64,000 bases of DNA, from positions 4,516-68,515 of the forward strand of contig JAVYLW010000006.1 of the NCBI GenBank assembly GCA_038740375.1. The letters run 5' to 3'. Within the stretch, counting starts at the first letter, position 1; every line of letters starts with the position of its first letter. Below are positions 6,068-6,330 of this stretch, one piece after another. The notes under the pieces were generated by a model. That model had not been told where the DNA came from. It searched no databases and saw nothing but the letters and a program-made list of their open reading frames with translations. Position numbers and translations under genes: made by a program. This DNA comes from Candidatus Pacearchaeota archaeon. GTDB taxonomy: Archaea > Nanobdellota > Nanobdellia > Pacearchaeales > GW2011-AR1.

Positions 6068-6330
6068 GCAGACTAGGCTCGCGGGTTAGCTCTCCGCGAT
6101 TTTGCAAATCGAGCTTATGGCAAGCTGCAAGAGAGGAAGTGATAAACAGGTTAAAGAGTCTCAATGCAGACGTTGAAAGTTTGTCCTTCTTGATCTTGCT
6201 CTTGCGAACCGGGTCAGATCTTGATCGAAGCAGCCCTAAACAGGAGTTAAGATGCTTGAGGGGTAGCAAACTAGAGAATGCATTTTGAGGTTCACTCTTT
6301 AATTTGTTTTGAGCAACCTCTCGAGTCTGC
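6068..6330 (+). ncRNA. Signal recognition particle (SRP/7S) RNA, 263 nt
   Basis: GC-enriched island; terminal helix GCAGACT/AGTCTGC; 5' Alu-like GACTAGGCTCGCGGGTTAGC; 15-bp helix-5 duplex 6144-6158/6295-6309 (G-U pairs allowed); SRP54-binding helix 8 GGGTCAG...AGCAGCCC at 6211-6236; T-run after the 3' end. Confidence 0.9.

Follow-up and report, generated by a model that had tools for sequence, protein, structure and literature searches.

An SRP RNA without helix 6 in a Pacearchaeota genome points to a probable two-component, Bacillus-like particle of archaeal sequence background

Reviews describe the archaeal SRP as a 7S RNA with SRP19 and SRP54, and report SRP19 from every archaeal group, together with helix 6 of the RNA (PMC2905702). 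A 64,000-nucleotide stretch of the genome of a DPANN archaeon, Candidatus Pacearchaeota, hereafter the window, carries a candidate SRP RNA that appeared to have no room for helix 6. This locus raises the questions of whether it is a genuine archaeal SRP RNA gene, how far the missing helix extends among related genomes, and with which proteins such an RNA would form a particle.

Infernal search with cmscan under E-value reporting revealed that positions 6066-6332 of the forward strand match the family Archaea_SRP (RF01857) over model positions 1-317, with 81.8 bits and an E-value of 1e-18. As this score is below the curated gathering score of 96.5 bits, a default Rfam scan misses the gene; at the gathering thresholds, a tRNA-Leu is the sole match in the window and the SRP RNA is passed over. 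The family Bacteria_large_SRP (RF01854) also aligns end to end (model 1-256 on 257 nt), with 54.9 bits, which is under its gathering score of 60 bits and lower than the score of the archaeal model. Judged by these alignments, the homology to Archaea_SRP is unambiguous despite the sub-threshold score. The RNA of 263-267 nt lies in a G+C island (~43% in 6066-6332, compared to 10-25% in the flanks), and its fold beats 200 of 200 dinucleotide shuffles (z = -3.29). The host genome (0.97 Mb in 15 contigs, 85% complete) gave no other SRP RNA match.

The features of the locus are collected in Table 1. We read the TATA-like box TTTTTAAAAACC as a putative promoter because its spacing agrees with about -26, where archaeal TATA boxes usually lie; in relatives, CCTTAAAAACC or CCTTTATATAC precedes the SRP RNA gene by an equal distance. 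T-rich tracts likewise lie 3' of most orthologues, and the T run behind the window RNA probably serves as a terminator. The promoter box and the T run fit an independent archaeal transcription unit, and the gene is probably expressed. The upstream neighbour is a gene for a VTT/DedA-like membrane protein (5428-5982), which has a paralogue further upstream at 2295-2885 (both PF09335, sub-threshold); between them, at 3238-5313, a 691-aa protein is encoded that carries MopE-type metal-binding repeats. The SRP RNA is followed directly by a pilus-like locus (7850-11077), which opens with a series of small ORFs, including at least one (7850-8344) with an archaeal type IV pilin N-terminus, and ends with a T2SSE-family ATPase (9509-11077).

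Table 1. Features of the SRP RNA locus, in window coordinates
Feature	Position	Strand	Details
TATA-like box TTTTTAAAAACC, putative promoter	6037-6048	+	ends 17 nt 5' of the RNA start
Terminal helix (helix 1 and start of helix 5), 5' strand	6068-6074	+	partner 6324-6330; 8 pairs, 6 with compensatory changes
Helix 2, 5' strand GGCU	6076-6079	+	partner AGCU 6123-6126; 97.4% of cells paired; 3 of 4 pairs covary (UA/CG/UG, GC/AU)
Helix 3 hairpin	6080-6098	+	6080-6085 with 6093-6098, loop UUAGCUC 6086-6092; 97.8% of cells paired; 5 of 6 pairs compensatory
Helix 4 hairpin	6103-6122	+	UGC 6103-6105 with GCA 6120-6122, 14-nt loop; covaries (UA/CG, GC/AU)
Loop-loop contact, 5 bp Watson-Crick	GAGCU 6111-6115 with AGCUC 6088-6092	+	helix 4 loop to helix 3 loop
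Helix 5, 5' strand	6131-6198	+	partner 6248-6322; holds the conserved GUCC/GGG 5e-5f region; most pairs compensatory
Expected helix 6 branch point	6198-6199	+	zero nucleotides between helix 5 and helix 8 stem
Helix 8, SRP54 M-domain site	6199-6246	+	cmscan, covariation, pairing map
Helix 8 proximal stem	6199-6204 with 6241-6246	+	
Helix 8 asymmetric loop	CGAACC 6205-6210 and UAAA 6237-6240	+	
Helix 8 stem	GGGU 6211-6214 with GCCC 6233-6236	+	
Helix 8 symmetric loop	CAGA 6215-6218 and AGCA 6229-6232	+	
Helix 8 tip UC-UUGAUC-GA	6219-6228	+	pairs U6219-A6228 and C6220-G6227; mismatch U6221.C6226; UGAU loop 6222-6225
T run, likely archaeal terminator	6331-6334	+	directly 3' of the RNA end

The fold was assessed on an alignment of 30 SRP RNAs of the order (19 from the genus of the window, 10 from eight further families), using an RNAalifold consensus whose Alu part was corrected by hand. 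Standard pairs occupy 92.7% of the cells, compared to 78.4% in column shuffles and 38-52% with slid partners. Compensatory changes on both sides are found in 68 of the 87 pairs, and none of 500 shuffles reaches any of the observed measures. The abundant compensatory changes therefore indicate selection on the fold, which was predicted without helix 6 and is supported in that form across the relatives. The two long pairings proposed at the outset, 6144-6158 with 6295-6309 and 6193-6204 with 6241-6253, proved exact.

The Alu domain turned out differently from the original prediction, which had described it as shrunken. It is not, because model positions 1-64 align almost without gaps; helices 2, 3 and 4 and their loop contact are all present, and the missing length is almost entirely that of helix 6. 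Among the 30 RNAs, the three helices are paired in 93-98% of cells with compensatory changes, and the loop-loop contact is paired in 100%, with CG:15/UA:15 at one pair and CG:27/UA:3 at another. In relatives, the loop-loop pairs switch together (AGCCC/GGGCU, AGUCC/GGACU). The window coordinates of helix 4 and of the contact were set by eye, the window row being one column off in the alignment. We read the five-pair contact as the normal tertiary contact of the Alu domain, slightly extended. The helix 4 drawn earlier as GAUUU-UGC-AAAUC (6098-6110) takes G6098 of helix 3, is not conserved among relatives and is contradicted by covariation. The single-sequence minimum free energy fold of 6100-6130 was likewise rejected, and the covarying arrangement of helix 2, helix 4 and loop-loop contact preferred. 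Between helices 3 and 4, the window and its family have a degenerate UGUNR motif (AUUUU in the window), so that the function of the Alu domain may be altered. In relatives this position is variable (UGUUU, CGUUC, UGUAA), and the high scorers of the phylum retain UGUAA.

Helix 6 is absent from the RNA. In the cmscan alignment, the helix 6 block of RF01857 (model positions ~141-183) is deleted in the window, and the alignments of two relatives (L004 and L059) show the same deletion, [40]->[0]. Pairing runs unbroken from helix 5 into the helix 8 stem (alignment columns 141-161 with 199-220) and leaves no room for a branch. Neither the cmscan alignment nor the pairing map of the window RNA contains a helix 6 hairpin with a GNAR tetraloop, in line with the initial claim of an archaeal SRP RNA in which helix 5 continues directly into helix 8.

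This loss is not specific to the lineage of the window, although it had been taken for an independent reduction there. A set of 41 genomes from the genus and order gave 33 SRP RNA matches, each 258-281 nt long, and matches were obtained in 283 of 301 genomes of an even phylum sample, 260 of them over the gathering threshold. The sample belongs to a single class and spans 122 families (GTDB Nanoarchaeota: Pace-, Woese-, Parvarchaeales and others). Nearly all of the ~150 matches listed measure 268-278 nt, with two exceptions of 324-325 nt, and even a relative scoring 177 bits shows the same clean helix 6 deletion. The absence of helix 6 and SRP19 thus runs across the sampled phylum, with which published marker lists agree (PMC8421398, PMC10134863). 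Low RF01857 scores of 62-91 bits are particular to the family of the window. In two genomes, G001 and G157, the filtered genome-wide search gave no candidate, and direct cmscan at loci carrying the helix 8 motif recovered matches of 43 and 75 bits, the 43-bit one belonging to a gene cut by a contig end. Together with the sub-threshold score of the window, these cases bear out the expectation that standard covariance thresholds overlook such genes. Even with relaxed filters, no Archaea_SRP candidate was found in G050 and G067 (single contigs of 0.5-0.6 Mb) or in genus g79 (G108, G165 and G221), all of the same class. G050 and G067 also have no match to the SRP54 M domain, and genus g79 has SRP54; the SRP components of these genomes are either more divergent still or lost.

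A retained helix 6 was considered for the two RNAs of 324-325 nt and rejected, as their extra hairpin is located within helix 8 and carries UUCAC in its loop instead of GNAR. These two genes, from different families (L089, G455:C6:10061-10385; L090, G343:C8:61136-61459), share a conserved insert of ~48 nt between GGGUCA/ACGUCA and the remainder of the CAGG/CAGA loop. The insert consists of an inner hairpin, a 3-nt bulge and a 5-bp helix with the upstream 'exon' end, followed by AGA; once it is removed, helix 8 is canonical again and ends in a GGAA tip. The insert resembles an intron of the relaxed bulge-helix-bulge type within an SRP RNA gene.

Helix 8 keeps its core and changes its tip. The elements GAAC...GGGUCAG(A)...AGCAGCCCUAA are nearly invariant in the 30 RNAs, and the stems of the helix covary. 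As first described, CGAACC is unpaired, helix 8 occupies 6211-6236 and CAGG is replaced by CAGA. The loop was also correctly recognised as non-GNRA: a GRRA tetraloop is not found on helix 8 of the window, where UUGAUC occupies 6221-6226, and sister families have GGAA. Both tip pairs covary (CG:19/UA:11 and CG:20/UA:9/UG:1, n=30), and the same ten alignment columns read NNC-GGAA-GNN in sister families versus NNU-UGAY-CNN in the genus of the window. The tip is better read as a putative URRU (UGAU) tetraloop on a U.C closing mismatch. UGAU and UGAC fit URRU and URRC by sequence; the flanking U.C forms no standard pair, and tetraloop and hexaloop are therefore alike in secondary structure. Some bacterial SRP RNAs carry URRU or URRC loops in place of GNRA (Rosenblad and co-workers, cited in PMC4091067). 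A 2010 survey of archaea reports GRRA only (PMC2905702).

Searching the phylum sample for the motif GTCAGNNNTTGAYCNNNGCAGC gave 13 of 301 genomes, 10 of them among the 14 sampled of the family of the window and one each in three other families; the reversed control motif has no occurrence in the 301 genomes. A UGAY tip is also seen in families f7 and f8 of the order sample. Families f8, f90 and f109 each hold both the GGAA and the UGAY state, so the switch between them occurred repeatedly. The hexamer UUGAUC stands twice in the RNA, at the helix 8 tip and at 6190-6195 in a helix 5 strand, where it is conserved across the order. Because UUGACC variants of the tip exist, we take this repeat as probably a coincidence; a kissing dimer, or pairing of the tip with 6190-6195 through the palindromic GAUC, is unlikely, the UUGACC variants (L015, L019 and G381) not being palindromic.

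The profile search proposed for the protein partners found both SRP54 and FtsY present and intact on contig C3 of the host genome. SRP54 is encoded at L035:1000-2445 and FtsY at L034:1492-2865, each on the minus strand. SRP54 has its N, G and M domains (PF02881, PF00448 and PF02978, the last with 99 bits) and carries the RNA-binding motif SRLGRIAKGSG. FtsY consists of a Lys/Glu-rich A domain followed by the NG domains (PF02881, PF00448). Aligned on the DTAGR motif, a Lys of the host FtsY (EMEKI) presumably corresponds to the tetraloop-tether Lys of E. coli FtsY (K399), a match that would fit a retained docking step. The concept of the tetraloop tether is cited in PMC4091067.

Comparison with known systems places the window RNA between two architectures. 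The canonical archaeal 7S RNA (RF01857; Methanocaldococcus jannaschii, PDB 1LNG/2V3C) is the best-scoring family for the window, end to end. They share the terminal helix, helices 2, 3 and 4 with the loop contact, the long helix 5 with its 5e-5f region and the asymmetric and symmetric loops of helix 8, in addition to archaeal SRP54 and FtsY as partners. Compared to it, the window lacks both SRP19 and helix 6, including the GNAR loop, carries the tip U(UGAU)C instead of GRRA and a degenerate UGUNR, and its gene is ~50 nt shorter and under the gathering threshold. The Bacillus-type scRNA (RF01854) resembles the window in its Alu domain, in a helix 5 continuous with helix 8 and in the lack of helix 6, and its particle is built on one SRP54/Ffh protein, as the window particle would be. 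By contrast, the window scores lower on RF01854 than on RF01857, and both the host and the partners are of archaeal type. Most likely, the SRP of the window works like that of Bacillus and is archaeal by descent. With respect to the tip, the UGAU/UGAC loops fit the bacterial SRP RNAs with URRC/URRU in place of GNRA. However, those cases are bacterial 4.5S-type RNAs (PMC4091067), whereas here the RNA is archaeal with a conserved U.C closing mismatch, and the UGAY loop has emerged in six or more families of a single archaeal phylum. The SRP RNA of Thermoproteus tenax is likewise archaeal and missed by standard searches. The similar loss cited at the outset for Thermoproteales is not borne out: the Thermoproteus gene is circularly permuted and its RNA circularised, it retains a GNAR helix 6 and needs SRP19, which it binds, and its oddity is thus permutation, not domain loss (PMC4731332).

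The resemblance to Bacillus could also mean that DPANN kept an ancestral, Bacillus-like archaeal state, and that helix 6 and SRP19 arose later, in the stem of the other archaea and eukaryotes. Neither a remnant of helix 6 nor an SRP19 pseudogene was seen in the 301 genomes, and the architecture equals that of the bacterial large SRP RNA, which aligns from end to end, as such a history would have it. Nevertheless, the sequence is closer to the archaeal model (81.8 vs 54.9 bits). Many systems are moreover reduced in DPANN genomes, and several further universal genes are recorded as missing in the marker surveys, which favours loss, and the ancestral scenario hinges on where the root of Archaea is placed. 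We consider it unlikely, and take secondary loss of helix 6 and SRP19 as the preferred reading.

No SRP19 was found by the PF01922 search, at scores over the cut-off, in the host genome, in 41 relatives, in 201 genomes of the class or in 301 genomes of the phylum, which agrees with the initial proposal of an SRP19-independent SRP. As the host genome is 85% complete, the absence in that single genome is weak evidence by itself. The same search recovered SRP19 in three archaeal controls and missed that of a fourth, Sulfolobus acidocaldarius; Sulfolobus has SRP19 (PDB 3KTV/3KTW). A very divergent SRP19 could therefore escape, and the negatives need independent support. Because of this miss, we built our own profiles from M. 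jannaschii-type, A. fulgidus, P. furiosus and mammalian SRP19 sequences and ran hmmsearch without filters. Among all 5742 six-frame ORFs of at least 40 aa in the host genome, nothing scored better than an E-value of 0.013. This best candidate, a 91-aa ORF on contig C1 (~80,139-80,414, forward strand), was rejected as an Rpr2/Rpp21 RNase P zinc ribbon (PF04032). It has two CxxC pairs and reaches 23.8 bits against the Rpr2/Rpp21 threshold of 29.3, and may be a divergent Rpp21. The weak PF01922 matches, one inside a 1152-aa ORF and two others (L032 and L033) sub-threshold with internal stops, were taken as noise. As a control for the pipeline, the equally short SRP54 M domain was found in 292 of 301 phylum genomes and in 14 of 14 control genomes. 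A homologue search with M. jannaschii SRP19 returned Methanococci only and is uninformative on DPANN. Among published surveys, one of 152 Woesearchaeota genomes names PF01922 among five CheckM markers that are absent throughout (PMC8421398), and another finds it consistently absent in Parvarchaeales and Jingweiarchaeales (PMC10134863); the two papers raise this absence solely to correct completeness estimates.

Against this background, a three-component particle would require an SRP19 that is too divergent to be seen or has been replaced by an unrelated small protein, and that binds the UGAY tip of helix 8 or the 5e region, not helix 6. The lost Sulfolobus control shows that the sensitivity of PF01922 is imperfect, DPANN proteins evolve fast, and the conserved and recurrent UUGAYC tip could be a protein-binding site. 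Yet the unfiltered HMMER search of every ORF of that length was negative, as were the CheckM-based surveys with full HMMER on predicted proteins in the Woesearchaeota genomes (PMC8421398). In addition, the main docking site of SRP19, helix 6 with its GNAR loop, is missing in the relatives examined, and most of the phylum combines an ordinary GGAA tip with no SRP19. A hidden or substituted SRP19 is thus very improbable.

With SRP54 and FtsY encoded and SRP19 absent, we infer a two-component SRP. Positions 6066-6332 are very probably a functional Pacearchaeota SRP RNA without helix 6, belonging to a two-component, Bacillus-like SRP of archaeal sequence background. Consistent with such a particle, Haloferax can do without SRP19, and in vitro the SRP54 of archaea binds 7S RNA in the absence of SRP19 (reviewed in PMC6098224, PMC2905702). 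In the proposed mechanism, the RNA would be transcribed from its own TATA-type promoter to the T-run terminator and would keep an archaeal-type Alu domain (helices 2, 3 and 4 with the loop contact), a long helix 5 and the SRP54-binding core of helix 8. Helix 5 would stack straight onto helix 8, like in the Bacillus scRNA and E. coli 4.5S RNA. SRP54 would bind the conserved helix 8 loops unaided, recognise signal peptides and dock on FtsY, and the Alu domain, as in Bacillus, would extend to the factor site of the ribosome. The U-UGAY-C tip, replacing C-GGAA-G, presumably assumes the role of the tetraloop in receptor docking. This replacement appears particular to the family of the window, and the loss of helix 6 and SRP19 appears phylum-wide in the sample.

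That 6066-6332 is a decaying, non-functional copy whose working counterpart lies in the unassembled 15% of the genome is scarcely credible: the sub-threshold Rfam score, the degenerate UGUNR and the 85% completeness would permit it, but relatives of 90-100% completeness have the same form as their single SRP RNA, the abundant compensatory changes show selection on the fold, and the promoter box is conserved.

In the literature searched, including SRP19 together with DPANN or Nanoarchaeota, we found no paper describing an archaeal SRP RNA without helix 6; the part already in print is the absence of SRP19, given only as a marker accession in completeness footnotes (PMC8421398, PMC10134863). The finding is less surprising given that SRP19 is known to be dispensable and that DPANN genomes are generally reduced.

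As for annotation, the SRP RNA of the window's family goes unannotated because the gene is under the Rfam threshold, and SRP19 is unsuitable as a completeness marker for genomes of the sampled phylum. The archaeal URRY tip is an added feature beside the phylum-wide absence of helix 6 and SRP19, of interest to SRP specialists, and the repeated change from GGAA to U-UGAY-C would provide natural variants for the "tetraloop tether" step of SRP-receptor docking. Altogether, a very large archaeal phylum that, as sampled, lacks helix 6 and SRP19 amounts to a natural knockout, in agreement with the dispensability of SRP19 in Haloferax. It would offer a system for asking how SRP54 assembles on an RNA without helix 6 and SRP19, and what these two contribute in other archaea and eukaryotes.
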